Shown here: one piece after another, positions 21,379 through 45,700 of the stretch
Layout of the letters: the number at the start of each line of letters is the position of its first letter
How positions within the stretch are numbered: position 1 is the first letter of the stretch
IMG/VR virus record: IMGVR_UViG_3300048496_000015
From: a virus
Lineage: Duplodnaviria > Heunggongvirae > Uroviricota > Caudoviricetes
DNA length: 64,000 nucleotides
Direction: 5' to 3' (one strand)
Translations under genes and position numbers: made by a program
The notes under the pieces: model-generated
What the model was told of the DNA's origin: nothing
The model's database searches: none
Seen by the model: only the letters and a program-made list of their open reading frames with translations

Positions 21379-22617
21379 TTACAAGCTGATCAGGATCTTA
21401 TCCCCGAAAGGAGGCTTGGCGTCCTCGGTGAGAAGCCACACAACCGGCGTCGGTGGAACCTCAGGAGGCCAACGTCCAACCTGCCCGTCAGTGAGAACCA
21501 CAAGGATGTTGTTGAACAAGTGGTTTTCCTTGAGATAGGCGAACAGGTGAACAACATTTGTTCCACAACCACCCTTGGCCGGGATCTTTCTCCAGTCGCC
21601 CCGGTGATATCTCTTTGCGGGCATCTGGATCTTAGCGTCCCAAAGCACGAGGGAGATCTTGAAACGGTGGCTTGCAGCTTCCACTTCCGTGAAGAGTTGT
21701 TCGAGCATTTTGACGTTGCTGGCCACCGAACTGGAGACGTCGACCGCGAGGAGGAGCGGCACGGACGCGTGGTTGGAACGTCCAGCAAAGCCGAAGAGGT
21801 CAATGCGGCGGTTGCGCCGAGCGAAGGTCTTACGCTTGCCGCCCAGCTGACGACCGCAGAACTGACGGAACAAATACTTCCAGTTGACCTTCGGATCTTG
21901 AAGCTGCTCAATAGCATCTTTCAGGTGGCCTGGAGCCGAACCAGCTTTCTTGCTGGCCTGCTCAACCATGTCCTTGACGATCTGGCGGGTCTCTTCCTCA
22001 CCGATTTCCGACTCTTCCCAGATGTCGTGATTGTCAACCGTCGTGCCCGAAATGACCTTCTGTCCAGGCTTCGGTTTCTTCTTGCCGCTGGCGAGATCAC
22101 CACCCGGCATGTCGATGAAGATTTTCTTCTGGTTCTTGTCGAGCCAGTCGTAGACTTCCTCGTAGGTCGAGTTATTCTCGGGCGAGAGATCGCCCTCGGG
22201 GAAGTAAAGGGGCGGAGCTTCCGTCGTCTTGTTTCCGCCTTCATCGAAGACCGGAATCATCGGCAGGTTTTCGATGTTGGGCTTACTCTCGGGGCCATTC
22301 ACGCACATATCCGCAGCCGTGTTGGCCATTTCGTGGTCTCGCGCACCATGACGAGTGATGTGCAGGCGAACGATATGCTCAATTTCGTGCTGAATTACCG
22401 CCATCAGAGCGTCAATCTCTCCAATGGCATCAACAAAAGGTCCTGACCATCGACACTCGACCCGGCCTCCGGCAATCATACGGACGCCCATGGTCCCAAC
22501 CTTGTCGTCGCGCTTCCACTCCATGAGGGATGCCATCGTGCCATACCAAACGTGCATGGTCACCAGACGGCATCGCGCCTTCATGATGAGGTCTTCAGCG
22601 CTGTCGTACATACCCAT
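21379..22617 (-). CDS. vWA-domain protein with N-terminal HExxH metallopeptidase-like module; partner of the MoxR ATPase
   Basis: HEIEHIV motif; MIDAS-like LLLAVDVSSSV; GC-rich. Confidence 0.8.
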   Translation of the reverse strand: MGMYDSAEDLIMKARCRLVTMHVWYGTMASLMEWKRDDKVGTMGVRMIAGGRVECRWSGPFVDAIGEIDALMAVIQHEIEHIVRLHITRHGARDHEMANTAADMCVNGPESKPNIENLPMIPVFDEGGNKTTEAPPLYFPEGDLSPENNSTYEEVYDWLDKNQKKIFIDMPGGDLASGKKKPKPGQKVISGTTVDNHDIWEESEIGEEETRQIVKDMVEQASKKAGSAPGHLKDAIEQLQDPKVNWKYLFRQFCGRQLGGKRKTFARRNRRIDLFGFAGRSNHASVPLLLAVDVSSSVASNVKMLEQLFTEVEAASHRFKISLVLWDAKIQMPAKRYHRGDWRKIPAKGGCGTNVVHLFAYLKENHLFNNILVVLTDGQVGRWPPEVPPTPVVWLLTEDAKPPFGDKILISL

Positions 22618-25010: not shown

Positions 25011-26079
25011 GTTGAACTTTCACACGCAGATATTCATCCTCTTTATCGACTTCAGTCAATTCTGAGCCTTTAAAGATATGAAGACCATCTCTGGTCGAGT
25101 ACCGCTCCGGTTCAGTTTTGTACATGCTGAGATCGAATGGCCTCTTTCTCACTTTCTCCTGCAAGGCTGGTAGCTTCTGCCAGTTAACATAACCTTGGCC
25201 CCCATAGGGGTTAGCTTCCACCGCTCCTTTGACTTTCGACCAGTCGATGATGTAATAATTCTTGACTTTTTTTACCTCATCATCACCAATGAGGACGTAA
25301 TCACGAAGACCAGTTGGGTTCCTGTGACTCCACCCATAGGAAAAGACTAGAATTGGTTTGTAGCTTGGGTTGGCCAGAACCGCCGATTCAATCTTTTCCG
25401 ACTGAGACACGAATCGATAGATCTCATCCCCCACATCCTCGAAGTAAATCATTGAATGCTTCGCATACTCATCGATACCACTAAGGTTGAAGGGACGTTT
25501 CTTGGCGCGGCCTAAGATGAGGGAGGAATGCTGCTTGAGGATGCCGAGAACTCGCGCGGCTTTATTCAGACTGCCTAACTCTCGCTTGAGAGAGTCCCAG
25601 GTCGGATTAGGTAGAAACTTGTCATCGAAGTAATACGGTACCGAGAGGCCGTCAAAACGAACCTTCACATACCTACCGCGTCGGTCCTTATGCACGGAGG
25701 GACCTACAGACAATTTCTCTGTCTTGTAGGTCTTGTCATCCTGGGTTAGTTCGATATACTCCGCATTCCCGCGAAGCCAGTGCAGGGTCTCGGTGAGAGA
25801 GAGATTGATCACCATCTCATGAACAAGATGACCGTCCTGGGGTCTAAGATCCATTCCAATCTTGAGCGGACCAGATATGAGTTCAGGTCCCGAGTCTGCA
25901 ATATAGACGCTATATTGGAAGTTGTAGAATGCATCGGAAATTGATTTCGACGCTTCGAAGTCATGAAGCGGCGTAGTAGCCCTTACGAGCACCGGCTTCG
26001 GATTCGAATCCTTGACCGGATGGGGACCATATACCTTGAATAGACCCCGCTCACCTCGGAGGTTAGAGAATTGTTCCAT
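24988..26079 (-). CDS. hypothetical protein (363 aa)
   Basis: long track ORF. Confidence 0.6.
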   Translation of the reverse strand: MEQFSNLRGERGLFKVYGPHPVKDSNPKPVLVRATTPLHDFEASKSISDAFYNFQYSVYIADSGPELISGPLKIGMDLRPQDGHLVHEMVINLSLTETLHWLRGNAEYIELTQDDKTYKTEKLSVGPSVHKDRRGRYVKVRFDGLSVPYYFDDKFLPNPTWDSLKRELGSLNKAARVLGILKQHSSLILGRAKKRPFNLSGIDEYAKHSMIYFEDVGDEIYRFVSQSEKIESAVLANPSYKPILVFSYGWSHRNPTGLRDYVLIGDDEVKKVKNYYIIDWSKVKGAVEANPYGGQGYVNWQKLPALQEKVRKRPFDLSMYKTEPERYSTRDGLHIFKGSELTEVDKEDEYLRVKVQRACKAKL

Positions 26080-26753
26080 TAGATGATCCTATACTGCTTA
26101 AGGAAGTTGCGTACATCACTGGACATCTTACCGGCAAACTCACGAGGAGTCTTGGCCTTGAACTTCTCATTGAGAACTGCCTGAACGGCGTTGTGGTTGC
26201 TGCCACCACCACCGCGAGTACCGGTCAGATCGAAAATGACGTGGCAACAGTTATGTTGCAGATCATTCAAATGGTCGATAGACTCAATAATGGCCTTGTT
26301 GGACTTCGCCTTCTCAATGGCTAGGAAGGCTTCGCTGATCACAGCCCAAGGCTCGCCACCAAACGCGGACATTGACTTACCCTGCTTGGAGCGGAAAGCA
26401 TCAGCTGCTCCCGCCATCTTGTCCTTGGGTTTATTATGTTCTTTGTGCTCGGACTTGATCAGCTCCATCATGTTGAAGCCGAGCCCCGTTCGCGACATCG
26501 AAGCAGCCTGAGCCTTGATCTGCTCATCCATCTTGCCCTTCATGTCGCGAAGCATGGCTTCGATACTGGCACCGGCTACATCTAGACTCATGTAACCAGC
26601 TTCCTCTATGATGCGCTTCTTGAGCGTCTTAACGTAAGCCTGTTGGATTTCAGTCAGATAGAAACTGAAGAGATTCTTACCCTCCTCATCTAGGGTTTTC
26701 TCGTCAATGACGGAGAGGCCGTAGAAGTCGTATACATCACTTACTTTCAGCAT
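26079..26753 (-). CDS. hypothetical protein, intact paralogue of 18151-18915
   Basis: start trimmed to MLKVSDVYDFYG; has Q (CAA) where the paralogue has TAG. Confidence 0.6.
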   Translation of the reverse strand: MLKVSDVYDFYGLSVIDEKTLDEEGKNLFSFYLTEIQQAYVKTLKKRIIEEAGYMSLDVAGASIEAMLRDMKGKMDEQIKAQAASMSRTGLGFNMMELIKSEHKEHNKPKDKMAGAADAFRSKQGKSMSAFGGEPWAVISEAFLAIEKAKSNKAIIESIDHLNDLQHNCCHVIFDLTGTRGGGGSNHNAVQAVLNEKFKAKTPREFAGKMSSDVRNFLKQYRII

Positions 26754-26994
26754 CTTTCTTCTTCCTTCCGAACAGGTCTTCACGGATTTCTTTGAGTCCC
26801 GCCAGCTTATCTCCAAGCTCTTGAGCTGATTTGAGTCCAGCCGCTACCTTTCGCCACCTTGCTCGCTCGCCCCGGTAGCGCTTAAGAAAAGCAACAGCTC
26901 GACTTAGAAGGAGGGTCTCGGCATTCTCCATGCCGTCTTTGAGGCCGATGAGGCCCTCAATGACCTCGTCTATTTCTTTTTCTTTCACGTTCAT
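26737..26994 (-). CDS. hypothetical protein
   Basis: 85-aa track ORF. Confidence 0.4.
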   Translation of the reverse strand: MNVKEKEIDEVIEGLIGLKDGMENAETLLLSRAVAFLKRYRGERARWRKVAAGLKSAQELGDKLAGLKEIREDLFGRKKKDAESK

Positions 26995-27238
26995 GCTCCT
27001 CCATAGCGTCAGCCATTTTAGGTCCTGTAATTCCTAAGATCTCTAACCCCCAAATGGGCTCCATCTTACGAAACTTGGGGCTTGTCTTCTCAAGAAGAAG
27101 ACGGTCGAGTTTCGCTTGACCGCGACACTCTGCTTCCTTCCAACGATTCCCTAATCTAAGGAAAGGTTGGCGTCCTCGAGCCTCGAAATTCGCAGCATAA
27201 CTGGGGGCCACGATCTTGAAATTAGGCTCCTGCATCAT
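26957..27238 (-). CDS. small protein of the N-terminal NFKIVAP family
   Basis: MMQEPNFKIVAPSYAANFE... Confidence 0.5.
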   Translation of the reverse strand: MMQEPNFKIVAPSYAANFEARGRQPFLRLGNRWKEAECRGQAKLDRLLLEKTSPKFRKMEPIWGLEILGITGPKMADAMEEHERERKRNRRGH

Positions 27239-27923
27239 CCAGCTTCTTGAAGATCCGATCTCTCAGATCTCGGGCAACTGCCGCTCGACGGACGTCGTGA
27301 GACTCGTCAGCGTCATATTCTCCATGCTTGTAAAGCCGGTTTAGGTTCCGACCGGAAAACGCCATACGGACTTTGCCCGCTTCCTTCTTGTCCATGATGT
27401 GGAAGATACCCTCGATGGCACGTCCCGACATCTCAGCAAAATCCATGCGCACTTTCTCGTTCATCTCCCCGGGTTTGAAGACCTCTCCGTAGTGACGGAG
27501 AGCTTCACCCAGAACCTCGGACTCTTCTAGGTTCACGAAGAGGGAGACCAAGGAGTTAACAGCGGGCATTACGGGCTCCGCCCCAGGAATGATGATCTTA
27601 GGAGTCGAGGGGACCGCAGCCGGAGCCGCAGTTGGCACAGGAGCAGGGGCCACAGGCGGCGGCTTGACACCCATCCGCTCGGCCATCTCCTCGAAGGAGA
27701 AGATGTTCTTACCAGTTTTGGTCTGCCACTTCTCGTCGGCAGCCTTCGGGTCTTTCTCGTCGTAGCCCGGTTCATCCTTAGTAGAAGTCCGGATGACAAC
27801 CTCGCGGCTACAATTACAGGTAATGTGCCGCTCGATCATCTTCTTTCCATTCTCTTCGATTTCCGCGCAGGGCCAATCGAAGATTCGGTGGTTGATACCA
27901 CACGTGCAGAAGATCTTCATCAC
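27222..27923 (-). CDS. hypothetical protein with N-terminal Cys cluster and Pro/Ala-rich linker
   Basis: 233-aa track ORF. Confidence 0.55.
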   Translation of the reverse strand: MMKIFCTCGINHRIFDWPCAEIEENGKKMIERHITCNCSREVVIRTSTKDEPGYDEKDPKAADEKWQTKTGKNIFSFEEMAERMGVKPPPVAPAPVPTAAPAAVPSTPKIIIPGAEPVMPAVNSLVSLFVNLEESEVLGEALRHYGEVFKPGEMNEKVRMDFAEMSGRAIEGIFHIMDKKEAGKVRMAFSGRNLNRLYKHGEYDADESHDVRRAAVARDLRDRIFKKLDDAGA

Positions 27924-28432
27924 TCCTCCATATTGAGTCTAATTTGACTCACGTAGGTTAGAACAGCAGAATCCGCCCGACAATGATCCGGAATTTTACT
28001 CAGTAAGGTTTCAGTGTTTGAACGATAACCTTTTGTGAATTTCACGGGCTTAAGCTTGAAATCTCGCGTATTATCACATCGATCAGCGAGTTTAAGTAAG
28101 ACGCCATCTCGCGATAGCCGAGCAAAACGCGCGAAGTATTCAGCCTCTTTTTCAGCCTTAGGGAGAGACTTAACCTTAGTCACTCCCATGACCAGCTCAG
28201 TCATGTCGCTCCCGAAGTAGAGTCGGATTGTACCGGAAGTAACATCGGTGTCTTCAATCACATCATGAAGTACACCTGCAGTCGCCAACTTAATATTGCC
28301 GGTACGAGCAAAGAGATCATCCGCAACCCGTAAAGGGTGGAGGATATAAGGTTCGTCAACGAACTTGCGACGTTGTCCATCGTGGGCCTTGGTCGCAAGG
28401 AGGATTGCTCTATTGTAGTTCTGAAGCCACAT
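27920..28432 (-). CDS. HD-domain (p)ppGpp/alarmone hydrolase (RelA/SpoT hydrolase-type, SAH-like)
   Basis: ATKAHDGQRRK...PYILHPLRVA...AGVLHDVIEDT...LLKLADRCDNTRD. Confidence 0.8.
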   Translation of the reverse strand: MWLQNYNRAILLATKAHDGQRRKFVDEPYILHPLRVADDLFARTGNIKLATAGVLHDVIEDTDVTSGTIRLYFGSDMTELVMGVTKVKSLPKAEKEAEYFARFARLSRDGVLLKLADRCDNTRDFKLKPVKFTKGYRSNTETLLSKIPDHCRADSAVLTYVSQIRLNMEE

Positions 28433-28958
28433 GTTTTTCTACCTTATTAAGAAGGGCTCGGATTTTCTTATGATCCTCATTGTGATAGGAGATCTTACGC
28501 TCCGTTGCCTCTATATTGTCCTTAATCATCCTAACCAACAATTCTTCGAGCTTCTCGCCCACCTTCTCGTGGTTATGTAAGGGGATAAAGATTTCGAGAT
28601 GTCCCCTGCCAAACGTTAGACCTCCCTTAAGGGCGTTGTGGCGGGCCGCATATATCTGATCTAGGTGACCAATAGTCACACAAATTCTTCGATGATCTTG
28701 ATCATTGGAGAATAGCTCATGTGTCAGAACTCGTGCGCCGATCTTATCGAGCCTGCGCTCACGCCAGACTTTCTGGATATAGTCAGCCACAACCCGTTTT
28801 TGTCCTTCCGAGTTGTAATGTTTCGTACAGAGTAAGTCTCCCGAAAGCTTCTTCAAGCAACGACTATGATAGTGACCATCAGCACCGCACTTCTCACAGA
28901 TGGCAAACCGGTTGTTATAGATTAGACCTTTACATTTATCGCAGAAAGTCTTAGTCAT
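28410..28958 (-). CDS. zinc-finger protein, member D of the 'ADYxKKxW' family
   Basis: start trimmed to MTKTFCDKCKG by analogy with members A-C; VVADYIQKVW...ICVTIGHL core. Confidence 0.6.
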   Translation of the reverse strand: MTKTFCDKCKGLIYNNRFAICEKCGADGHYHSRCLKKLSGDLLCTKHYNSEGQKRVVADYIQKVWRERRLDKIGARVLTHELFSNDQDHRRICVTIGHLDQIYAARHNALKGGLTFGRGHLEIFIPLHNHEKVGEKLEELLVRMIKDNIEATERKISYHNEDHKKIRALLNKVEKHVASELQ

Positions 28959-29205
28959 CGCTCCATCTTCCACTCGCGTGCGGTTCTCCCTTACCATAAC
29001 CACGGGGATCGAGACGGTTGATTTCCTTAAATTGGCCCTCATCCATGATCTCGATCTCGCCTGCCGTCTTGTGACCGTAAGCCATCCGTCCTTTTTTCAT
29101 CGGGACGTCTCCGTCCGCGATTACACATGGAACGCAGGTTCTCGCGTTAGGGAGGGCTTCCAGGCGCTCAGCGGAGATTAGCTTACCGCAACGTTCACAA
29201 CTCAT
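28951..29205 (-). CDS. TraR/DksA-family C4 zinc-finger protein
   Basis: CERCGKLISAERLEALPNARTCVPC. Confidence 0.8.
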   Translation of the reverse strand: MSCERCGKLISAERLEALPNARTCVPCVIADGDVPMKKGRMAYGHKTAGEIEIMDEGQFKEINRLDPRGYGKGEPHASGRWSDD

Positions 29206-29867: not shown

Positions 29868-30031
29868 GATTCTCTAATACAGCCTTCACACTGGCAGCGG
29901 ACGCTAGAAAGATCACCGCAGATTTCATAACCCTGCTCAGCTACCCAATGTTCACAGCGACCGCACTCCCATGCGGGAGTGCCCTGCTTCTCTGCCTTGA
30001 ACATCTCGGACCCACAGTACTTACAAAGCAT
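29864..30031 (-). CDS. small zinc-ribbon protein (55 aa)
   Basis: MLCKYCGSEMF...WECGRCEHW...; TAATG upstream, ATGA downstream. Confidence 0.4.
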   Translation of the reverse strand: MLCKYCGSEMFKAEKQGTPAWECGRCEHWVAEQGYEICGDLSSVRCQCEGCIRES

Positions 30032-30423
30032 TATTCGGCTCCCTTCTTCTCTTTCTTAAGATACTTCGACTTCATGTTCTTCGTGCGCTCAACAATCAGC
30101 GCCGCGATTCGATCAATGAGATCAGGAACAGCTAGAGGAATGACCTCAAATTCCTGATGCCCGTACCCGTACTTCCTTCCCCTCGCCTGGAACTTGAGTT
30201 TCTCTCCTTCCACATGGACTTCGCTGATAAGAGAACTCATGGGAGAGGGCCACCGGAAAGATAATCTACTCCCTCTATAAGTGACATACCCTGTGCTGAC
30301 CGCAACCGCAACCTCGTTTGGATCAATACCAGCCTTCTTAAAGGCTTCTAGGAAGGTCTCACTGAGAATCATCATCAGTAACAGAATACCATTTCTTCTG
30401 AACGTAGAAGTCACCAACATCAA
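30031..30423 (-). CDS. hypothetical protein, paralogue of 19547-19942
   Basis: AFKKAGIDPNEV, EGEKLKFQARGRKYG and NMKSKYLKKEKKG are shared. Confidence 0.55.
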   Translation of the reverse strand: MMLVTSTFRRNGILLLMMILSETFLEAFKKAGIDPNEVAVAVSTGYVTYRGSRLSFRWPSPMSSLISEVHVEGEKLKFQARGRKYGYGHQEFEVIPLAVPDLIDRIAALIVERTKNMKSKYLKKEKKGAE

Positions 30424-30432: not shown

Positions 30433-30909
30433 TCATTTAACACCCTTCGTCGCGGCCCACTTCCGTATCAGCTTTTGCGTTTTCTTCCGTTCTCTCTTTG
30501 CCTTATCGGTTTCAACTAGTTCCCGCAACTTTTTGTCATAGACATCTTTCTTCTTGAGACTCTTAACAAGCTTGGTGTCAGTCTCGAACAGCGTTCTTAA
30601 AAGACCAAGAAGGTCAGATGTCGGTTCAGCAATGTTCATGTAATAAACCCATCCATCTTTATTCGTTGACAGGTCTTGCTTGCGCGAGAAGATGACCTCA
30701 ACCTCATTTTGAACGAACACGTGGATTGCAGGGATAAAGTATCCTCCCCGAATCTGGAGATGAGGTTGGATATAAGGTGTCGAACCGCCGTACAAGGACA
30801 CCTTAAATCCCTCGTTAATGAGCCACACCTTTAGTTGGCCTAGCGTGGCAACTTTCTCTTGATGGGTCATTTCGCAAACTGACGCTTGGCCAGCTCCTCC
30901 TTGTACCAC
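30433..30909 (-). CDS. hypothetical protein
   Basis: 158-aa track ORF. Confidence 0.55.
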   Translation of the reverse strand: MVQGGAGQASVCEMTHQEKVATLGQLKVWLINEGFKVSLYGGSTPYIQPHLQIRGGYFIPAIHVFVQNEVEVIFSRKQDLSTNKDGWVYYMNIAEPTSDLLGLLRTLFETDTKLVKSLKKKDVYDKKLRELVETDKAKRERKKTQKLIRKWAATKGVK

Positions 30910-31838
30910 TCAGGAAGGCCAGCAGTCGCTCCACGCAAGATCTTGGGAAGCGCCCACTTTAGAAGCGCCTCAGCGATGGGCGAGTTGGGACCCTTCGCCT
31001 CTTCCTCAGTGAGATCCTTGTGGACTTCCTTGATAAGCTTGCCGATGTCCTTCGGAGCATTTTCAAGCTCACCACGTTCCTCGAGGTGCATTACTGCCTT
31101 GCTCCAGCGAGCAGGGGTTTGATACGACATGATGAGCTTCTGAAGGATATCACCCTGCTTGGGGTTGGATTCCTTCCACTCGACCCCGTGCTTCTCCTTG
31201 AACTCCTCGCTGACGAACTTCCCCATCATGGCCTTGCCATCCGAACCAAAACGGTTGTAGTTCTTGACGACAACACCTTCGATCTTCTCTTCGCCTAGGA
31301 CACTCATGGTCTCGTCCACGAGCTTCCGGAAGACGTCGTAGTTATCGATCTTGCCACGGAAGAAACAAGGGACGCACTCGAGGCCGATCCGATCGGCTTC
31401 AGCCTTCTTCTCTTCGGGAGAGAGATACTGCTCGTACGAGGGGCTGATATCGAAGATGATCAGATGGTCTTTGGGGACCCGGCCGTAAGCCCGAGTGTGA
31501 TGCTTGGGCTTCGACAGGTATTCTGCCCGGTAGGTCCAGCCCAGCTTGAGATTGGGTTGAAGCTTTAGGATGGTTTCTACCGCCTTGATGAAGAGCTTCT
31601 CAGGGGCAATCAGGTTGATCTGGGCACCCTTCGAACGGGCACGCAGCTCGGGACCCTCACCAAAATCGAAGACACCAAAGCTGAATTGGGACCCGTCCAC
31701 TTTCTCTTCGAGGATCACTTCCTCCAGGAAAAGCTCTGTGATCGCATGGTGACCCAGAGCGTGGATCTTCGTGTATGAATGATACGACGTTGCGGTTACA
31801 GGCTTCTTTGCAACCAGGGGCTTCTCTTCAGGAACCAT
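30867..31838 (-). CDS. Rnl2-family RNA ligase (covalent nucleotidyltransferase)
   Basis: motif I EEKVDGSQFSF (KxDG), motif IV EGVVVKN, motif V region; start trimmed to MVPEEKP. Confidence 0.75.
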   Translation of the reverse strand: MVPEEKPLVAKKPVTATSYHSYTKIHALGHHAITELFLEEVILEEKVDGSQFSFGVFDFGEGPELRARSKGAQINLIAPEKLFIKAVETILKLQPNLKLGWTYRAEYLSKPKHHTRAYGRVPKDHLIIFDISPSYEQYLSPEEKKAEADRIGLECVPCFFRGKIDNYDVFRKLVDETMSVLGEEKIEGVVVKNYNRFGSDGKAMMGKFVSEEFKEKHGVEWKESNPKQGDILQKLIMSYQTPARWSKAVMHLEERGELENAPKDIGKLIKEVHKDLTEEEAKGPNSPIAEALLKWALPKILRGATAGLPEWYKEELAKRQFAK

Positions 31839-32181
31839 TCTTTCCCTCACAATCTTTACAGCAGCACTTGATACATACGCATTCGCTACCACCACATGGA
31901 GTAGTGCAATGCTTATGACTACAACCACATGTCTCGTAATCGGAGAAGGGAAGTATCGACGCTAACTGCTTCCTTTCTCGATCATAGACAACCTTGAGCA
32001 TCTGCTTTTCATGCTCAACCAGGAAGATGGAAACCCGGTGGGAGTCTTTATGGTAGAATCTCGCATCTCCCACACGGATCTTGTCCACGATACGACACTG
32101 GTCCTCCTCTCTGAGGACCAGCCCAAATCGCTGGAAGGCACGCCGTTGAGCGTGCAACCGCTGAGATTTATCTTTCTTCAT
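31828..32181 (-). CDS. hypothetical protein with C-terminal Cys cluster
   Basis: 117-aa track ORF. Confidence 0.5.
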   Translation of the reverse strand: MKKDKSQRLHAQRRAFQRFGLVLREEDQCRIVDKIRVGDARFYHKDSHRVSIFLVEHEKQMLKVVYDRERKQLASILPFSDYETCGCSHKHCTTPCGGSECVCIKCCCKDCEGKNGS

Positions 32182-32183: not shown

Positions 32184-32276
32184 TAATCTCCTACCCCGCC
32201 GAAGCCGAGACTGAGGTACCACCGATAGTAAGTTATGTTACGTCTCCTCGCCGGTGGCGCTATAATCTTGAAATTC
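32184..32276 (-). CDS. micro-ORF (30 aa) with an MNFKIIAPP N-terminus
   Basis: MNFKIIAPPARRRNITYYRWYLSLGFGGVGD; sits exactly between two genes. Confidence 0.3.
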
Positions 32277-32277
32277 A

Positions 32278-32643
32278 TCAAGCCCATGCAAACCTGTGGA
32301 AGGATTCAATCTCCTTTGAGCGGACACATTCATCGCAGATTGGTTTAATAGGTCCATCTGTGTCCTGAAAGACTCCAGTTGCTGTGGCAGCGCAGCGAGA
32401 GCACTCCCACTCTTCGTCCTCTTCCTTCTCCTGAGGGATGAAGCGCTCATCAATCTCGCCCATTGTTTTTTGGATCGCTTTGAACCAGAGAGTCTCGTCG
32501 TGACCCGAGCATCCAAATTCGCTCAAGATCGTCTTGAGATGATCAAACATCTCAAATGCTTTATCGTGGGTCTTGCAACGCTGAATGATGGGGAAAGGCA
32601 TCCCCTGCTCGGGCTCTAAGACTTTACAAGCACACGTAGACAT
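32278..32643 (-). CDS. hypothetical Cys-rich protein
   Basis: 121-aa track ORF. Confidence 0.5.
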   Translation of the reverse strand: MSTCACKVLEPEQGMPFPIIQRCKTHDKAFEMFDHLKTILSEFGCSGHDETLWFKAIQKTMGEIDERFIPQEKEEDEEWECSRCAATATGVFQDTDGPIKPICDECVRSKEIESFHRFAWA

Positions 32644-32893
32644 ATTGCATCCTCCTAATCATGTCAGCGAGATCTTCAAAGAAGTTGGGGTCGGCCATGT
32701 TTAATATACGCGGACGACCTATCCCCATGACTGTGATCTTCGGTAGCTCATCTAGAATGAGCCTACCATGAGCCGAATTATCGATGAGAGATTCGATATA
32801 AAAGACGTCTCCAGCGTCGTTGATCTTGATCGGGGTCCCGCGATATTCCTCTTTCAGCCATTCAACAAGAGCTGTCTCAAAGTCGAGTTTCAT
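32624..32893 (-). CDS. small protein of the DPxFF family
   Basis: ...ILNMADPNFFEDLADMIRRM. Confidence 0.55.
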   Translation of the reverse strand: MKLDFETALVEWLKEEYRGTPIKINDAGDVFYIESLIDNSAHGRLILDELPKITVMGIGRPRILNMADPNFFEDLADMIRRMQYVYVCL

Positions 32894-33093
32894 CGTCTCA
32901 TCCAGGTTCTACCTGTCCAAACGACCCTAGACCACGCATTACAGTGGACCACATGAGGAATACCCTCTTTGTTGACGTGTCTAAAAAACTCAAGTGCTTC
33001 CGGGAATTTAGACGGAGGAGTCGTGTGATCTTTATAGAGAAAGACCTTTCCCAACAAATAGCCCGTGTAAGGGACCAAAATCTTGAAGTTCAT
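32890..33093 (-). CDS. small protein of the MNFKI family
   Basis: MNFKILVPYTGYLLGK...; GAGGAAG SD. Confidence 0.5.
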   Translation of the reverse strand: MNFKILVPYTGYLLGKVFLYKDHTTPPSKFPEALEFFRHVNKEGIPHVVHCNAWSRVVWTGRTWMRR

Positions 33094-33920: not shown

Positions 33921-34048
33921 TTCTTCTCCTTGAACTTCTGGATGATCTCAACCATCAAGCAGATGTAAAGGGTTAAGGCTGTCCCTTCCACACCGAAGGT
34001 CAGGAGACCTAATCCGATAAGGAATAAAAAGAGAAGGAAATTTCTCAT
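33917..34048 (-). CDS. small hydrophobic peptide (43 aa)
   Basis: MRNFLLFLFLIGLGLLTFGVEG...; ATGA overlaps at both ends. Confidence 0.35.
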   Translation of the reverse strand: MRNFLLFLFLIGLGLLTFGVEGTALTLYICLMVEIIQKFKEKK

Positions 34049-34245
34049 TTTACCTCAGGTAAAACCTCAGGACCCCAATCTAGATCATAGTCTAGATTCC
34101 AATGCCAATCGGAATAATGACCTTGGGGCCGTTGGCACCGGATAGGCTTATTGTCTGGAGTCAATGCAGACCAACAAGCATTTTCACAAAGAACCTCTTT
34201 ATAGGCAGCATTTGGGGCGAAGATCTTAAATTTTTCTGAACTCAT
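34045..34245 (-). CDS. small protein, NFKI-family variant (KFKIFAP)
   Basis: MSSEKFKIFAPNAAYKEV... Confidence 0.45.
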   Translation of the reverse strand: MSSEKFKIFAPNAAYKEVLCENACWSALTPDNKPIRCQRPQGHYSDWHWNLDYDLDWGPEVLPEVK

Positions 34246-34556
34246 TCACCCGCCGCTTCTACCGTAGCAGACATAGAACCTGCACAACGTGGGATCCTTG
34301 GGTCTCGCCCGTAAGCGTGGACCTTATCTCTCTTGAATTCAGCATATTCAAGAGCGCCCGAATATACAATCACCTTTCCGGTCGCATCGACCTCAACTGC
34401 CATCCTGAATGCCTTCTCCTTGGAGTGACCGAAGACCACTCCAAGCATTTCGATCACATACTCGTATGTGTGATCATCATCATTCCACAGGATAACGTTG
34501 TAAGGAGGCTGTGTCTTGACATCCTCCTTGACTTCATCTTTTACTTCTGTCGACAT
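34242..34556 (-). CDS. clpS: ClpS, Clp protease N-degron adaptor (copy 1)
   Basis: YNVILWNDDDHTYEYVIEMLGVVFGHSKEKAFRMAVEVDATGKVIVYSGALEYAEFKRDKV. Confidence 0.85.
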   Translation of the reverse strand: MSTEVKDEVKEDVKTQPPYNVILWNDDDHTYEYVIEMLGVVFGHSKEKAFRMAVEVDATGKVIVYSGALEYAEFKRDKVHAYGRDPRIPRCAGSMSATVEAAGE

Positions 34557-34783
34557 TACTTCTTCTCCCGTGTGGTACGTTCGGTGAATTGAGACATCTT
34601 ATCGAGACTTCCGAGGTCATCAAATTTTGTGTCAAGTAATTTGACATCATTAATCTCGGCTGCACCAAATTCTCGCAGATAGTCGAGGAAATCTTCCTCA
34701 CGCTCATCACCGAGAGGTACGGCATAAGTGATGCAATAAACAAGTGTCTTGCCGAGTTTCTCACAGGCCTTTTTGCGGTCCAT
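34556..34783 (-). CDS. hypothetical protein
   Basis: 75-aa track ORF. Confidence 0.45.
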   Translation of the reverse strand: MDRKKACEKLGKTLVYCITYAVPLGDEREEDFLDYLREFGAAEINDVKLLDTKFDDLGSLDKMSQFTERTTREKK

Positions 34784-34983
34784 CAGAGTCCTTTCATCTC
34801 TTCAAGGATGTCTTTCCAGTCTTTTCCAGTTCGAGTAGCTATATCCTTAATACGGAGGAGACCTTCTTTAAGAGAACAATCATAACAAAGAATATGACTT
34901 ATTGGATGCAATCGTGGTTTCGCCTTGCAAGTCAAGCAAGGCACTGCAGCTATCGGCGCAGTCATTTTGAAGTTCCCGAGCAT
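34783..34983 (-). CDS. small Cys-containing protein, NFKI-family variant (NFKMTAP)
   Basis: MLGNFKMTAPIAAVPCLTCK... Confidence 0.45.
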   Translation of the reverse strand: MLGNFKMTAPIAAVPCLTCKAKPRLHPISHILCYDCSLKEGLLRIKDIATRTGKDWKDILEEMKGL

Positions 34984-35142
34984 CTACCTCACCAATCCCA
35001 CGTACACGAGATCCCTCGACTTCGACTTCTTCGATCCATCCACGCTCGTCTCCGTCACGGTGACTTGACGGCCCTTTCGGGTCTTCATCTTCCTCCGGAC
35101 GCCGTGCTTCGCGTCGGTCCTGGAGTAGAAACCGTGAACCAT
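34984..35142 (-). CDS. small basic protein (52 aa)
   Basis: MVHGFYSRTDAKHGVRRKMKTRKGRQV...; fills the gap between two genes. Confidence 0.3.
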   Translation of the reverse strand: MVHGFYSRTDAKHGVRRKMKTRKGRQVTVTETSVDGSKKSKSRDLVYVGLVR

Positions 35143-35143
35143 C

Positions 35144-35488
35144 TTACTGTTGCTGCGCCGCATCGTTTTCCTCCTTGTAAGCTTCCGTATCCAACTGGTT
35201 TAAGCGAGCATTATTTCTCTCTACCCAGAGATTGAATTCTGGTCTTTCTTGAAGGGTAGTGAGAATCTCCATTGTCTTGGGCTCATCAAGCTGCCCTGGC
35301 AGAACATAGAGCTTCCAGATCCTTTTAAAACGTTTGAACCCCTCCAGATCTCTCACCGCATCATGCTCATATGCGGCGAGTATCTTCATCCGATCGATGC
35401 CGAGGATCTTGAAGTTGCTCCTACTCTCCATTCTTCTCCGCCTTGAGCTCCGAGTCGGCCCTGCTCCATCCATCAATTTCGGTTCCAT
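35144..35488 (-). CDS. hypothetical protein, NFKI family, tandem paralogue of 35573-35806
   Basis: ...SNFKILGIDRMKILAAYEHDAVRDLEGFKRF. Confidence 0.55.
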   Translation of the reverse strand: MEPKLMDGAGPTRSSRRRRMESRSNFKILGIDRMKILAAYEHDAVRDLEGFKRFKRIWKLYVLPGQLDEPKTMEILTTLQERPEFNLWVERNNARLNQLDTEAYKEENDAAQQQ

Positions 35489-35572
35489 CCGCTTTATCGG
35501 TGGCCTCTTGTTCGGAGTCGGCCTCGACCTCGATTGAGTAATAGACGCTATAACTCACAGTCCATTTGGGCT

Positions 35573-35806
35573 TCACAAGCTCTTCTCTTTCTTCTGATCT
35601 TCTCGAGAGAGATCTACAACGGTAAATCCATTCCGGCCCCACCACGAGCCGTAACGAAGACCGTAAACTTCGTGCATCTTCTTTCCGTCACAATGTGCGT
35701 TAAAAAACTTTTTGAGCCTTTGAAACCAAGCAATATCCTTAACTGCATCGTGTTCAAATCGTTCCAACTCCCTCATTCGATCGATGCCGACTATCTTGAA
35801 ATTCAT
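35573..35806 (-). CDS. hypothetical protein, NFKI family
   Basis: MNFKIVGIDRMRELERFEHDAVKDIAWFQRL. Confidence 0.55.
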   Translation of the reverse strand: MNFKIVGIDRMRELERFEHDAVKDIAWFQRLKKFFNAHCDGKKMHEVYGLRYGSWWGRNGFTVVDLSREDQKKEKSL

Positions 35807-35952
35807 CTTCCACTCGAGTAGAGACTACCGGTCACTGCCATGGCCAAGAACCCGATCAGCGAAAGCGGCCAGATAGCCATCAGCCCGATACATTTCCAAT
35901 CGACACGTCTCCCGCGTTTAGGACCCCAGAAGGCCGTTAGCCCGAGTAACAT
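35804..35952 (-). CDS. small membrane peptide (49 aa)
   Basis: MLLGLTAFWGPKRGRRVDWKCIGLMAIWPLSLIGFLAMAV...; ATGA overlap with MNFKIVGID gene. Confidence 0.35.
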
Positions 35953-35978
35953 GATTATCAAGTACGCCCATACCCAAA

Positions 35979-36227
35979 TCATTTCTTATCATGGTCACTT
36001 GCATGACCAAGCGCCGCTGCTTGAGCTAAAAGGCCCCATAAAAGCATCACTATGGCGATGGGAACAGAGATCCAAGGGGTCATCCACATGTTTTTGATGA
36101 GTTCGATACATCCCTCTTGGCCTACGATGTCCTGAAAAAGAGACATGGCTGCAGCCATAGAGAGAACTCCGCACCACCATGAAGTCCCAGCAACAGACTT
36201 CATTGAATGTTTCTTCTCTTTTGCCAT
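35979..36227 (-). CDS. small membrane protein
   Basis: 82 aa with two hydrophobic segments. Confidence 0.5.
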   Translation of the reverse strand: MAKEKKHSMKSVAGTSWWCGVLSMAAAMSLFQDIVGQEGCIELIKNMWMTPWISVPIAIVMLLWGLLAQAAALGHASDHDKK

Positions 36228-36527
36228 TTAATCCTCCGGCTCAATAGAGAAGGTCAGAGGGAATTTATTCATTCGGGCTATCGCGTGAGCCTTCTCTACA
36301 TGGAATTCAGCTCGTTCGAGAGGTTCCACCACAACCAGGGCTACTTGCTTCGAGTGAGCCTCGAGCATGATCCGCGTAGATTCCGCGAGATCCTTATTGA
36401 AGACTTTGGATAGAACCAGAACTACGAAATCCATCGGAGTCTTCGGATCATCGTGGATGAGTACCCGATACATCTTGATGTATCCGGTACGCGTTTTAGT
36501 CTCCTGAATGGTATCCGTATCAGACAC
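36228..36527 (-). CDS. clpS: ClpS-like adaptor (copy 2)
   Basis: YRVLIHDDPKTPMDFVVLVLSKVFNKDLAESTRIMLEAHSKQVALVVVEPLERAEFHVEKA. Confidence 0.8.
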   Translation of the reverse strand: MSDTDTIQETKTRTGYIKMYRVLIHDDPKTPMDFVVLVLSKVFNKDLAESTRIMLEAHSKQVALVVVEPLERAEFHVEKAHAIARMNKFPLTFSIEPED

Positions 36528-36867
36528 ATCGATCTCCTTCAGGGAGAGTTTCTTCGAACTGAGTCAGCTTGCCGGTCAGAGGCGAACGTCGCCGTAGCTC
36601 GTGTTCCTCTACTTGCGGAGGAGGAATGGGCTTCTTATCGGCCAACTCGATATAATCCTTGTCATGGACAACAGTCCGTCCGTTAATAGACGTCACGAGA
36701 TTCCTCTTCTCGTTCTCCATCAGGTCATACTCGAAAAGGACGATCGTCCCGATTTCAAGTCCTGACTCACGGAGACGAATGAACTCGTCCAAAGCTTCCT
36801 TTTCGTTCTCTTCCTGATAAAGGTTGATATACTCAGCTTTCCAATCAACCACGCCAAAAAGCTTCAT
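36520..36867 (-). CDS. hypothetical protein
   Basis: 115-aa track ORF. Confidence 0.5.
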   Translation of the reverse strand: MKLFGVVDWKAEYINLYQEENEKEALDEFIRLRESGLEIGTIVLFEYDLMENEKRNLVTSINGRTVVHDKDYIELADKKPIPPPQVEEHELRRRSPLTGKLTQFEETLPEGDRCV

Positions 36868-37565
36868 TACAGACTCTCCTTCAGCTTTTGAACAACCTCA
36901 TCAATATGAGATACACCTGAAGGAGGTGGAGCACACCTTACTCCATGGTGTTCATTACGACGACTCAAAGTCTCCGTCGAGCCTCCAGGACGGGTCCACC
37001 AAGAATCAAGTGCCCACTTATCCTCAATAAGGTCGTAAAGAGCGACCATGTTGGGGTGAGCGTTGTGATAACAACTCGTTGCGAGGTTAACCAAGATGGC
37101 GATTGCATCAGGCTTAGTATCCGGTTTAGCCAGTTCCTGGTCAGAATAGCGACGGTAAATAATCCTCTTACACTTGGCTTTGTCGGCTCTTATCAGGGTA
37201 GGAGGACCTTGATTGGGATGTTTAACCTTACACCAAGAATATTTACATCCTGCATCAAAGTGCTTGAGAGTCTCTCTAAGCCGATCTTCATTGTGACGCC
37301 CCCAACCGAAAAAGCTCGAACGTTTCTCAGAGCGGTAGTCAGCTAAGTCCTTTATAACTCTTTCTCTTGTCATGCTATGGACTTCACTGCATTGCCAGTT
37401 TGTCCGCTGAGCCCTGTTCTCGTAAATGGCACTCTTTTCTTTGTAGCCACAATCTTCGTGAGTACACGTCTCCGACAGTGTGGTACGCTTAAAAAAGCCG
37501 AGAGTCTCGGCCTCCAAGACGAACGCTTTATGCTTAAGGAGGGGTTCTTTCTTCATCGGTCCCAC
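36867..37565 (-). CDS. hypothetical protein (232 aa)
   Basis: track ORF. Confidence 0.55.
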   Translation of the reverse strand: MGPMKKEPLLKHKAFVLEAETLGFFKRTTLSETCTHEDCGYKEKSAIYENRAQRTNWQCSEVHSMTRERVIKDLADYRSEKRSSFFGWGRHNEDRLRETLKHFDAGCKYSWCKVKHPNQGPPTLIRADKAKCKRIIYRRYSDQELAKPDTKPDAIAILVNLATSCYHNAHPNMVALYDLIEDKWALDSWWTRPGGSTETLSRRNEHHGVRCAPPPSGVSHIDEVVQKLKESL

Positions 37566-38059
37566 TCATTCCCGCCCAATTCAACTGGCTCCACTTTCAT
37601 GCCCTTAGGAATCCGACTCCGGTAAACGAAATAGATCAACTCGCCATCCTTGATGTGGCGAAAACGCCTCTTAATCCAGTCGGATTCAGGCTTCTTGCGT
37701 CTATCGTCAGTCACAAGCTTCCAGGTTGATTCACCTTCATTACCTATAATAGAAACCCATGCTCTCCTGGTATAAGGGGAGTTGGTCGCCTCAACCAAGG
37801 AAGCAATCCTATTTGCCGGATTTGCGATACCTTTACGGCGAAGAACGATGTAATGTGTCATCACGAGATAAGCATTGTCCTCTTCCAGTTCTCGGGGATG
37901 CTCTTTCCACCCGAAGGAGAGGTGATAATACGCTTGTAGCTTACTCAGCGGATCCTTTGGGAGAGGTTTGAGATGACTCACTACTCCAACTTTTTCGTCC
38001 GAGATCAAGCTACAACCGTCCTTCCATCGGCACCGTCGCGCCACTTGATCTTGATCCAA
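37553..38059 (-). CDS. hypothetical protein
   Basis: 168-aa track ORF. Confidence 0.5.
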   Translation of the reverse strand: MDQDQVARRCRWKDGCSLISDEKVGVVSHLKPLPKDPLSKLQAYYHLSFGWKEHPRELEEDNAYLVMTHYIVLRRKGIANPANRIASLVEATNSPYTRRAWVSIIGNEGESTWKLVTDDRRKKPESDWIKRRFRHIKDGELIYFVYRSRIPKGMKVEPVELGGNEWDR

Positions 38060-38631
38060 TTGGGGTTCTTCTTCGACTCCTTCGTGTCTCCAACCAACTT
38101 GCTGAGCTTCCCCTTAAGGACGATCCCCTCGGTCGTCTTATCCGTCTTCGACCAAGCGAAGAGCTCCGAATAAGGAGTGAGACTCTTCCCATCAGAAACC
38201 CACTTGGGAAGCTGAAGCGGGAAAGCCTCGGGGTCATCGAGTTTCGAGAACACGCCCTCGAAAATCTTAATCACCTTGTCCCAGCGAAAGGCTTCGGGAT
38301 CTCTTCCCAACCACTCTCCGTTGAACCAAGGCATCCCGATTACATATAGCAGTTCTGGCCCATCGTAATCAGGGCGACGGCGCATCCACTCAGTATCGAG
38401 GACGGTGGCTGGGGGAAGGTCCAAGAACTTAACGGCCTTCCTCATCTCGTCGGCGACGGGAAGAGGCTTATTAACTCTCGACCAGAATGAGATATCGTCG
38501 TTGATGGTCACAGCACATCGCCATCCGTCATACTTCGCGGTCGCGATGTAGCCGCCCTGCATATCGAGATCAGGGAGGGATTTAGGGTCCCTACGCCAGG
38601 GCTTGTCGGGGAATCTACGAAGCAAATTCAT
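38005..38631 (-). CDS. minimal ATP-dependent ligase-type nucleotidyltransferase (adenylation domain only, 208 aa)
   Basis: motif I IATAKYDGWRCAV (KxDG), motif IV EGIVLKGK, motif V WIKIKWR. Confidence 0.65.
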   Translation of the reverse strand: MNLLRRFPDKPWRRDPKSLPDLDMQGGYIATAKYDGWRCAVTINDDISFWSRVNKPLPVADEMRKAVKFLDLPPATVLDTEWMRRRPDYDGPELLYVIGMPWFNGEWLGRDPEAFRWDKVIKIFEGVFSKLDDPEAFPLQLPKWVSDGKSLTPYSELFAWSKTDKTTEGIVLKGKLSKLVGDTKESKKNPNWIKIKWRDGADGRTVVA

Positions 38632-41524: not shown

Positions 41525-41851
41525 TAACGGCCCCATTTCTCTTATTCGCTGACCAACAACATGGTCATTGTAGGACCGAAGCATCCTGTAGAACTTCGGG
41601 AAGAACTCAGGATCAGCAGCAGGTAACTCTATTCCCGATTCAGGAAGGTGCATGTGTTCGAGGTTTTTTATCCACCTTACACTAGCGTCCTTAATGAGGA
41701 AAACAACGTTAGCAGTTTGGTGTTTAGGGAGATGATAGAGATATCGATACCCTAAATGCTCCCCCGTATGCCACTGACGAGGACTCGCATGAGCATCGTA
41801 CTCACTCTGAGCCGCCAACCAATCCTTGATGATCCATTGTAGGTGGATCAC
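41522..41851 (-). CDS. small protein of the DPxFF family
   Basis: IIKDWLAAQSEYD...ELPAADPEFFPKFYRML. Confidence 0.55.
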   Translation of the reverse strand: MIHLQWIIKDWLAAQSEYDAHASPRQWHTGEHLGYRYLYHLPKHQTANVVFLIKDASVRWIKNLEHMHLPESGIELPAADPEFFPKFYRMLRSYNDHVVGQRIREMGPL

Positions 41852-43227
41852 TTATCACCAAGAACGATATTCAGGATTTCGTAGGGATCCTTTAAACCCT
41901 TCTCATACTGAACCTCTCGGCACTTCTTGATGATGGTACCGAACTCTGGCGAGGGTTTCATATCGCGCTCAAGGAGATGTCTACCCATCACGACATCCTT
42001 CTCGGGCCTCTTATCAACGGAAATAACCCGAGCCATCCGCATGAACTCGTCGCCATGTTTGAAATCCTTGGCGAGAGCATCCGGTGACGTGCGGCCGAAG
42101 TGATCGGCGGACGACACTTTGTAAAGCATTTCCATCGTCGTGCCAGCCTCAGCTAAACGCCGGGCGAGCTTACGATAGCCCTTCGGGCCCACATTCGACT
42201 TTGGATGGGCGAAGTGTGCCGGAGCAAGATGGTCCTTGACCAAAGCAGATACCTGCGACACCAGGGCGAGCGGCGCTCGGAGTCGCTCCAAGAAGGCACG
42301 CGCAGGTTCCATACCTGCTTCTTCATGCCCGCGAGCCCTCCACCGACCCTCCTCAAATTGGGTCGTAGCGGCCTTACCGAAATCGTGAGCCAAAGCTCCA
42401 AACATCAGCGGGAGGTCGTGCTCGGGGACTCCCGTCCGCAGTTCAGCGGCGCAGTCGATCACCATCAGAGTATGGATATAGACGTCCCCCTCAGGATGCC
42501 AAACGGGATCCTGCTGAACATCAACGAGGTTATGGATCTCGGGAGCGATAATCCTATTGGCGTCGATTTCCTGTAAGAAGGCCACTCCTCGCGAGGGCTG
42601 AGATCCCTTGAGGAGAAGCTTGACCCACTCTTCCCAGAGTCGCTCGCCTGGAAGCTCCTTAAGAGCGTCAACAGTCGCTTTACACAAATCCAACGTCTCC
42701 GCATCCGGGCGTAGGTGGAATCGGGCAATAAACTGTGCGGCCCGCAAGATCCGAAGGGGATCCTCAACGAAGGTCTGGGGATCGGTAACACGGATGATCC
42801 TCTTACGGAGATCATCCTGCCCACCGAACGGATCGATGATCTCGCTGGTAAGAGGATCCATCGCGATGGAGTTCATCGTGAAGTCACGCCTACGCGCAGC
42901 ATCTTTGATGGACATGGAGGGATCCGGCTTAACCGTGAAACCCTTATGACCAACGCCGATCTTGGAATCACGGCGGGGAACCGAGATATCAAAACCTCCA
43001 ACCTTTAAGATGCCAAAAGCCCTACCTACCGCGTGGACGTCCCCAAAACGCTTCAGGGTGGTTTCGAGACGCTCCATAGGGAGCCCATAGACTTCGATAT
43101 CGACATCCTTAGGAGGTAAGCCTAGAAGTTGGTCGCGGACATAGCCGCCTACAACAAGAGCTCGACCACCTTGGCGGCGGATCGAATTTGCGATTTCTTT
43201 TACTTTGGTGTCCATATCTCTCCTCAC
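41848..43227 (-). CDS. cca: tRNA nucleotidyltransferase (CCA-adding enzyme) with C-terminal HD domain
   Basis: GGRALVVGGYVRDQLLGLPPKDVDIEV head motif, RILRAAQFIARF, HTLMV...LAHDFGK. Confidence 0.85.
   Translation of the reverse strand: MRRDMDTKVKEIANSIRRQGGRALVVGGYVRDQLLGLPPKDVDIEVYGLPMERLETTLKRFGDVHAVGRAFGILKVGGFDISVPRRDSKIGVGHKGFTVKPDPSMSIKDAARRRDFTMNSIAMDPLTSEIIDPFGGQDDLRKRIIRVTDPQTFVEDPLRILRAAQFIARFHLRPDAETLDLCKATVDALKELPGERLWEEWVKLLLKGSQPSRGVAFLQEIDANRIIAPEIHNLVDVQQDPVWHPEGDVYIHTLMVIDCAAELRTGVPEHDLPLMFGALAHDFGKAATTQFEEGRWRARGHEEAGMEPARAFLERLRAPLALVSQVSALVKDHLAPAHFAHPKSNVGPKGYRKLARRLAEAGTTMEMLYKVSSADHFGRTSPDALAKDFKHGDEFMRMARVISVDKRPEKDVVMGRHLLERDMKPSPEFGTIIKKCREVQYEKGLKDPYEILNIVLGDK

Positions 43228-45623: not shown

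Positions 45624-45700
<77 letters not shown>

Follow-up and report, generated by a model that had tools for sequence, protein, structure and literature searches.

Two neighbouring ClpS genes of different bacterial subfamilies in a jumbo-phage-like genome

The stretch analysed here, 64,000 nt from the viral record IMGVR_UViG_3300048496_000015 and referred to throughout as the window, carries two divergent genes of the ClpS family of proteolytic adaptors, both on the minus strand and 1.7 kb apart. Copy 1 (34242-34556) encodes a 104-residue protein of a subfamily that we name type A, with the motifs NDDDHTYEYV and EVD and a C-terminal insertion, RIPRCAGSMSA; copy 2 (36228-36527) begins with GTG and encodes a 99-residue protein of a second subfamily, type B, that reads HDDPKTPMDF...EAH. 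Protein and gene context was examined over about 84 kb, the window plus a 10 kb flank at each end. The reading that we favour, with a probability of roughly 60%, is that a jumbo phage of Planctomycetota maintains both host types of ClpS to reprogramme proteolysis by the host ClpA/ClpC-ClpP protease.

Both open reading frames (ORFs) encode genuine members of the ClpS family, by sequence and by predicted fold. Each scores well above the 23-bit cut-off of the Pfam ClpS model PF02617 (copy 1, E value 5.9e-20 and 71.3 bits; copy 2, 2e-22 and 79.2 bits), each matches the PHROG family that contains phage ClpS, and the top matches of a PDB sequence search are all ClpS chains, with UBR2 as a weak additional match for copy 1. 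AlphaFold2 models, built from small alignments of relatives, have a mean predicted local distance difference test score (pLDDT) of 81.6 for copy 1 and 83.4 for copy 2, rising above 90 over the core, and both show a beta-alpha-alpha-beta-alpha-beta topology preceded by a disordered tail; this N-terminal extension places 17-19 residues ahead of the first strand, and residues 1-18 of either copy are of low pLDDT and without secondary structure. In Foldseek the top matches of both models are solved ClpS structures only, copy 1 superposing at TMt 0.86-0.92 on the ClpS of E. coli and of M. smegmatis and copy 2 on Caulobacter ClpS (3gq0_A) with an E value of 6e-9, TMt 0.96 and a root-mean-square deviation of 0.7 Å. 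The ClpS fold that the first-pass annotation had assigned to both proteins from the letters alone is thus borne out. The copy 2 GTG at 36527 lies 6 nt after a GGAG and overlaps the upstream gene by 8 nt, the ATG of copy 1 overlaps the stop codon of its upstream gene (TAATG), and the TGA of copy 1 overlaps the ATG of the next gene, which encodes a KFKIF motif (ATGA, 4 nt). A scan of 31.5-38 kb for promoters and terminators gave nothing above background that would set the two ClpS genes apart.

The two copies were described as paralogues in the first-pass annotation, a label that is misleading. They are only 28% identical to each other over 71 residues, and searches of a 5.8-billion-protein collection returned two non-overlapping sets of relatives. 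Copy 1 has 1,387 of them, the best at 66-76% identity and with genes in bacterial contexts at 73-76% among the best, and copy 2 has 185, one at 72% identity and the rest at 50-64%, with bacterial type B genes at 55-60%; in both sets the relatives with an organism name are all from Planctomycetota. Since each copy is far closer to its own bacterial subfamily than to the other copy, the two were not duplicated in the phage; the sequences indicate instead the capture of two host genes that had diverged long before and have been brought close together. Type A proteins share NDDDHTYEYVIEML, an EVD in place of the canonical VH and the C-terminal insertion in the form RIPRCxGSMSA; type B proteins share LYRVLIHNDDVTPMDFVV...EAH and an almost canonical pocket, as in HNDDVTPMDF...EAH. 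The bacterial members of both types lie in ordinary chromosomal surroundings, near NADH dehydrogenase genes, DNA polymerase III alpha, transporters or a sigma factor, and a second ClpS gene within 10 kb was found at none of 86 bacterial loci. Type A is present in at least 578 GTDB reference genomes, which are mostly Planctomycetota (Gemmataceae, Pirellulaceae, Phycisphaerae and others), the remainder including Rubrobacteraceae, Calditrichia and Rhodothermota. Neither a curated model nor a solved structure for type A came up in our searches, and neither subfamily falls under a curated NCBIfam equivalog. One Planctomycetota metagenome-assembled genome (MAG) very probably holds both types at separate loci: the type A protein HLY09858.1 (P0009 in our set) is on a contig of GCA_035308725.1, the type B protein HLY08348.1 (P0239) is 1,510 accession numbers away, and both are found, on different contigs, in the assemblies JGI 3300005538 and ENA ERZ27279685.

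Two related contigs show that both genes are maintained. The first (L089, ENA, 5.3 kb) is syntenic with the window and carries, in order, the ligase gene (80% identity), orthologues of 37553-38059, 36867-37565 and 36520-36867, a type B ClpS gene (P0122), an extra 2OG-Fe(II) oxygenase gene, and orthologues of 35979-36227, 35144-35488 and 34984-35163, where the contig ends. P0122 also begins with GTG and keeps the 18-residue N-terminal extension of copy 2. The gene directly upstream of copy 2 (36520-36867, minus strand, 115 residues) is 65% identical to L089 3081-3413, which adjoins the type B gene there, and the hydrophobic protein encoded directly downstream (35979-36227, minus strand, 82 residues) is 61% identical to L089 4520-4771. 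The second contig (L293) comes from the metagenome that also yielded the window; it has an orthologue of 34984-35163, then two unrelated genes, then a type A ClpS gene (P0002, 72% identity). The gene 34984-35163 (minus strand) encodes a basic 59-residue protein that serves as the synteny anchor between the two ClpS genes, with 86% identity to L089 5002-5181 and 73% to L293 109-294. It seems that the order of type B gene, 59-residue gene and type A gene is conserved while the small genes between them turn over. The L293 slot between the 59-residue gene and the type A gene is occupied at 294-710 by a gene for a 138-residue protein whose CX5R loop (VNCEAGISRSPG) resembles that of dual-specificity phosphatases, and the corresponding slot of the window carries instead ORFs with the short N-terminal motif described below. 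The ratio of nonsynonymous to synonymous substitution rates (dN/dS) is 0.07 for type A (window against the L293 orthologue) and 0.05 for type B (window against the L089 orthologue), rough values, as dS is saturated, yet so far below 1 that both ClpS genes are under purifying selection in this lineage.

The residues of the N-degron pocket, given here in E. coli numbering, depart from the E. coli pattern in a different way in each copy. In E. coli ClpS the substrate site consists of D35, D36 and H66, and alanine mutants bind substrate less well (PMC9810338); the gatekeeper Met40 excludes beta-branched N-terminal residues (bioRxiv 10.1101/2024.06.12.598358). Copy 1 has N34, D35, D36, His38 in place of Thr38, Tyr40 in place of Met40 and Asp66 in place of His66, all identical to bacterial type A and with no phage-specific change, and Tyr at the gatekeeper position is common to all type A sequences. 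Copy 2 has D34, D35, Pro36 in place of Asp36, T38, M40 and H66. In a 20-sequence alignment that includes the two copies and both subfamilies, D35, E79, A81 and E82 never vary, and Glu79 and Glu82 are the acids that dock on the ClpA/ClpC N-domain; copy 1 retains Lys84, where copy 2, like type B in general, has His.

Pro36 is present in all three viral sequences among the 123 of type B (the window, P0122 and the IMG/VR contig L009) and in none of the 120 others, a virus-associated change; L009 is not sister to the pair formed by the window and P0122 in a neighbour-joining tree, which suggests two origins. The L009 gene (IMGVR_UViG_3300031952_000052, about 7950-8273) lies on a high-GC viral contig and reads HNDPFTPMDF, where the closest sequence of the set (P0189, 72% identity) has NDD; the change may have arisen independently in viruses. 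M. smegmatis ClpS, which reads VWDDPVNLMSYV...QVH, shares the Asp-Asp-Pro of copy 2 at positions 34-36, and its first Asp forms a salt bridge with the substrate amino group, with Leu, Phe, Tyr and Trp all bound (bioRxiv 10.1101/2024.06.12.598358). Because mycobacterial ClpS natively has Asp-Asp-Pro and binds N-degrons, Pro36 in copy 2 is not evidence of lost function. For type A there is a hint, by analogy, that the role of the histidine may have moved: the type A profile reaches UBR2 (E value 6.5e-6) and UBR1, Plasmodium ClpS shares His38 with type A (NDDIHNFTYV against NDDDHTYEYV), and a D251/H254 pair in the ClpS-like domain of S. pombe Ubr11 is required for type-2 recognition (PMC4447728), a pair that by its spacing may correspond to D27/H29 of type A. 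Neither pocket is fully canonical, the point that had been left to be checked when the genes were first noticed, but both deviations have natural precedents, one throughout type A and the other in the mycobacterial Asp-Asp-Pro.

A plausible scenario for the pair is as follows. A jumbo-phage-like genome of 384 kb, whose host would most likely belong to Planctomycetota, carries host-derived forms of both ClpS subfamilies, the type B form near-canonical, within one long co-directional array of small genes. During infection the phage would raise the cellular dose of both adaptors, which would dock on the host ClpA/ClpC-ClpP protease and, by binding N-degrons, would shift substrate choice toward proteins with destabilising N-termini, while other clients would be disfavoured, as with E. 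coli ClpS. Host proteolysis may in this way be reprogrammed to the benefit of the phage. The analysis establishes the family, fold and origin of each copy together with their conservation and selection; docking on the host unfoldase, N-degron binding, timing and any gain for the phage are conjectural.

Several points weigh against this scenario. The full D35/D36/H66 triad of E. coli is absent from both copies, with one residue changed in each, and among the solved or characterised ClpS proteins found none has an Asp at position 66; for type A the binding of N-degrons is a prediction, as is, for both copies, docking on the host unfoldase. Both copies fall far short of the cut-offs of the NCBIfam ClpS equivalogs (NF000668-NF000672 and NF009561-NF009565), the best scores being 46.6 bits for copy 1 (cut-off 143) and 69.5 bits for copy 2 (cut-off 149). 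The assignment of HLY08348.1 to the same MAG as HLY09858.1 is very probable, from accession proximity and shared samples. Finally, the roughly 84 kb examined showed no hallmark phage gene, such as one for a virion protein, terminase, capsid or tail, and a megablast of 10 kb of the window gave no DNA match in INPHARED, so that we infer the phage status of the element from the style of its genes.

The main rival explanation is that the phage ClpS proteins act as decoys or inhibitors, occupying the N-domains of host Clp unfoldases or sequestering N-degron proteins and in this way sparing phage proteins or useful host proteins from degradation. The departure of each copy from the canonical triad at one position would suit such a role, as would the restriction of Pro36 to viral type B sequences with its two suggested origins and the retention of the docking residues Glu79 and Glu82. 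The N-terminal extensions, at 17-19 residues, are also shorter than the 27 of E. coli; E. coli ClpS requires its extension for hand-off to ClpA and, on its own, inhibits the degradation of ssrA-tagged substrates. One IMG/VR contig moreover pairs a canonical ClpS with a ClpS-like gene of degenerate pocket. However, the extensions equal those of the bacterial homologues in length, the pocket of copy 1 is indistinguishable from that of bacterial type A, and Asp-Asp-Pro is native to an M. smegmatis ClpS that not only binds but delivers Leu, Phe, Tyr and Trp substrates (bioRxiv 10.1101/2024.06.12.598358). The altered specificity or decoy function raised by the first-pass annotation finds no argument in the sequence, where one pocket is that of its bacterial subfamily and the other has the Asp-Asp-Pro of mycobacterial ClpS, and we regard the decoy explanation as unlikely, though the strongest of the alternatives.

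ClpS genes are already known from jumbo phages, with the proposed role of supplying the host ClpAP with targets (PMC7824862; also noted in PMC6102473), and it is the pair that is rare. ClpS is annotated in Pseudomonas phage PA5oct-like phages, Sinorhizobium phage Phosso and Salicola phage SCTP-2, at one place per record. These and the gene of Agrobacterium phage Atu_ph07 resemble the present case in being small ClpS genes on very large phages, but they are 28-36% identical to copy 2, none matched copy 1, and each record has a single place, whereas here two subfamilies are carried within 1.7 kb and both are closest to Planctomycetota genes. Relatives in IMG/VR were found by alignment-based scans only, single-sequence scans with each copy having found nothing; at least 147 ClpS-encoding stretches were found, 80 loci were fetched, and just one (L060) has a second ClpS within 8 kb, in agreement with the earlier remark that a duplicated ClpS is unusual in a phage. 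That contig (IMGVR_UViG_3300025131_006800), the only other viral one found with two ClpS-like genes, carries them at 1078-1371 and 7965-8273, one canonical (NDDYTPMDF...VH) and the other with its pocket lost (YSVATPD...K). Type A is nearly absent from viral collections, represented by one IMG/VR contig and one distant INPHARED match.

Among cellular systems, Agrobacterium tumefaciens and cyanobacteria likewise combine in one genome two divergent adaptors, ClpS1 and ClpS2, that are thought to differ in specificity or timing. Copy 2 matches A. tumefaciens ClpS2 (4yjm) with an E value of 2.8e-10, but the type A/type B division of Planctomycetota is a different split from either of these, and the Asp66 and five-residue C-terminal insertion of type A were found in no solved ClpS. 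Mycobacterial ClpS (M. smegmatis, PDB 9ayn-9b1p) works with ClpC1 (bioRxiv 10.1101/2024.06.12.598358) and shares Asp-Asp-Pro, His66 and Met40 with copy 2, but it is only about 26% identical and has a shortened helix 3, the fold of copy 2 being closest to that of Caulobacter ClpS. The ClpS-like N-domains of UBR1 and UBR2 and the apicoplast ClpS (PDB 4o2x) resemble type A in the profile match and, for Plasmodium, in the His at Thr38; the former, however, are domains of large E3 ligases, and the latter is organellar and keeps His66. A Planctomycetes ClpS group that natively binds Leu, Ile and Val, the parent of the PS961 recogniser (bioRxiv 10.1101/2022.01.04.475002), illustrates that ClpS of this phylum can have non-canonical N-terminal specificity, although its published Q55/L68/V72/Y100 positions are fitted by no type A or type B sequence in our sets.

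A different relationship was proposed in the first-pass annotation, in which the ClpS genes are embedded in a cluster of genes for a six-member protein family that begins MNFKI. Nine small minus-strand ORFs of the window begin with N-F-[KR]-I-[VIL]-[AGV]-[PI] or the variants KFKIF and NFKM, and one more lies just outside (L295 11318-11470); the motif directly follows the Met in five, and the others have a leader of 2-5 residues. Six of the nine do fall between 32184 and 35806, a 3.6-kb stretch; copy 1 is within this cluster, and copy 2 lies about 420 nt upstream of it. The Phe that was said to be invariant at position 3 is there in only three of the six (MNFKIIAP, MNFKILVP and MNFKIVGI; the others are MSSEKFKIF, MLGNFKM and MESRSNFKIL), and the six are not a homologous family, as only 35144-35488 and 35573-35806 align past the heptapeptide. 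Nor is the motif restricted to this segment.

The cluster comprises, from the copy 2 side, 35573-35806 (MNFKIVGIDRM..., a 77-residue ORFan whose only database match is itself and which is the paralogue of 35144-35488), 35144-35431 within the longer ORF 35144-35488 (MESRSNFKILGIDRM..., 95 residues, with the L089 orthologue MNFRILGIDRM and a dN/dS of 0.08), 34783-34983 (MLGNFKMTAP..., 66 residues, also called by JGI as a 60-residue version from the second Met), 34045-34245 (MSSEKFKIFAP..., 66 residues, its start overlapping the stop of copy 1), 32890-33093 (MNFKILVPY..., 67 residues) and 32184-32278 (MNFKIIAPP..., 31 residues, absent from the JGI gene calls). Elsewhere in the window are 26957-27235 (MQEPNFKIVAP..., a 92-residue ORFan whose sole match among 1.84 billion representatives is itself), 17901-18044 (MNFKIVAPK..., 47 residues) and 929-1069 (NFKIVAIEEM... 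after a GTG, 46 residues), all on the minus strand. A further candidate, 11237-11833, was dropped as an internal stretch of an SPFH/Band-7 protein.

The heptapeptide is real, selected at the peptide level on otherwise unrelated ORFan proteins, and unexplained. A degenerate DNA pattern of the motif occurs six times in the window and never in 100 shuffles; third codon positions vary freely and the DNA upstream shows no relationship, so that conservation is at the level of the peptide, and a promoter or ribosome-binding-site cassette is rejected. The pattern MNFKIVAP has no match in IMG/VR, and a looser pattern gave 113 single matches in metagenome contigs (the collection without the source contig), about the order of magnitude expected by chance, none with a second motif copy or a ClpS. 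Homologues of two motif proteins in the 5.8-billion and 1.84-billion protein libraries are only the proteins themselves, nine of the ten motif candidates have no PHROG match, and on the other ClpS-bearing viral contigs examined the motif was found only on the syntenic L089.

The ClpS pair and the motif could form one system in which the heptapeptide is a conditional N-degron and the phage adaptors time the destruction of the small proteins that carry it, through cleavage before the Phe or through addition of Leu or Phe to the Met-Asn terminus, as the E. coli Leu/Phe-transferase (LFTR) does on MN-PATase. Phe-Lys/Arg-Ile, if exposed, would be a good ClpS ligand, the motif is selected as a peptide and kept in an orthologue (MNFRI), the motif ORFs concentrate near the ClpS genes and one overlaps the stop codon of copy 1. 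In E. coli, PATase is leucylated on its unprocessed Met, and an Asn stands beside the acceptor in both non-canonical LFTR substrates (bioRxiv 10.1101/2021.07.26.453911). However, no motif ORF encodes an exposed N-terminal Leu, Phe, Trp or Tyr, the encoded termini being Met-Asn-Phe or longer, with leaders of 1-5 residues before the motif, and no Leu/Phe-transferase, Bpt or candidate processing protease was seen among the 157 window ORFs or the flanks. The clustering can stem from local gene turnover, two of the members being paralogues; three copies in the window and the fourth just outside lie far from ClpS, and other ClpS-bearing viral loci lack the motif. An aromatic residue at position 2 disfavours LFTR (bioRxiv 10.1101/2021.07.26.453911), though position 2 is Asn here. 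The link, which had been offered as speculative, has gained no support from this work, nor did any result refute it, and the connection consists of proximity and of the 4 nt by which copy 1 overlaps the KFKIF gene. We consider a single system very unlikely, and it is a shade less likely still that the heptapeptide, as NF[KR]I-x-[AG]-[PI], marks ORFans as conditional N-degron substrates whose lifetimes are set by the ClpS pair; were it true, this would be a phage-encoded timer of programmed proteolysis built on the host Clp protease. The heptapeptide could also be a sorting signal, comparable to the N-terminal capsid-targeting sequence that the T4 internal proteins share, or a ClpX-type N-terminal tag.

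Least probable of all is that the ClpS genes are passengers picked up from hosts without a role in infection. In favour of this, jumbo phages have many sporadic host-derived genes and copy 1 is very host-like; against it, the positions of both genes are kept in related contigs under the low dN/dS values given above and copy 2 has diverged from bacterial genes with its fold kept.

The exact copy 1 protein is found on a JGI contig (3300060479, Ga0589155_0000001) of 384,188 bp, of which the window is about 19.7-83.7 kb, and 157 minus-strand ORFs, mostly ORFans, cover 95% of the window. Annotated genes include those for an RNA ligase, a CCA-adding enzyme, RlaP, a Pol X-like polymerase, ATP-dependent ligases, a MoxR-type ATPase with a VWA/metallopeptidase partner, an HD_4 hydrolase, a SpoU methylase and an SPFH protein, several of which match PHROG families, and there is one tRNA-Met gene. 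The 10-kb flanks are of the same style, with genes for a NAD-dependent ligase, a helicase, dCMP deaminase, NusB and a T4_Y16D family protein. Pfam matches among the window ORFs and the flanks revealed no Clp ATPase, ClpP or Leu/Phe-transferase. This gene content suggests the accessory region of a jumbo phage, and the host is most likely a member of Planctomycetota.

Among the other genes of the region, we note an RNA-repair-type set on the minus strand, an RNA ligase (30867-31928), a CCA-adding tRNA nucleotidyltransferase with an HD domain (41848-43227) and RlaP (2428-3213 by position in L295), that together with the tRNA-Met gene (45624-45700, minus strand) suggests a defence against tRNA cleavage by the host; the window also has an AAA_33 kinase-like gene. 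The MoxR/AAA-type ATPase gene adjoins one for a DUF2201 metallopeptidase-like and VWA-like protein (21379-22617 and 23395-24753, minus strand; phrog_1297 and phrog_1314). At least two ATP-dependent DNA-ligase-like genes are present (38005-38631 and 61826-63160, minus strand), the NAD-dependent ligase is just outside the window (L295 15714-17591), a LigD_N-like gene is in the flank, and the Pol X-like polymerase with palm and thumb is at 56729-57412. A paralogous family of four proteins of 200-360 residues (3164-4258, 4632-5243, 5243-5872 and 28410-29042, minus strand; 20-29% pairwise identity) has no Pfam or PHROG match, and 18349-18915 and 26079-26816 form a further paralogue pair, as do 19547-19942 and 30031-30423. 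A DksA/TraR-type zinc finger gene near the HD_4 (RelA/SpoT-like hydrolase) gene, at about 27920-28930 on the minus strand (L001 15354-15608 and 16127-16639), hints at interference with the host stringent response. A full-length DUF4419 protein (59104-60156, minus strand; Pfam E value 6.8e-73, no PHROG match) is an unusually strong match in an ORFan-rich region.

Of interest here are two subfamilies paired in one genome, a Pro36 specific to viruses, the type A subfamily with its Asp66 and an orphan heptapeptide, none of which overturns anything yet. The heptapeptide is a signal in its own right, separate from ClpS, and the analysis draws attention to type A, a subfamily with Asp in place of His66 that is widespread among reference genomes. 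Phage-encoded ClpS has been noted in the literature but is not known to have been studied, and few phages of Planctomycetota are known to us. This genome would be well suited to the question of what phages gain when they reprogramme N-degron proteolysis.

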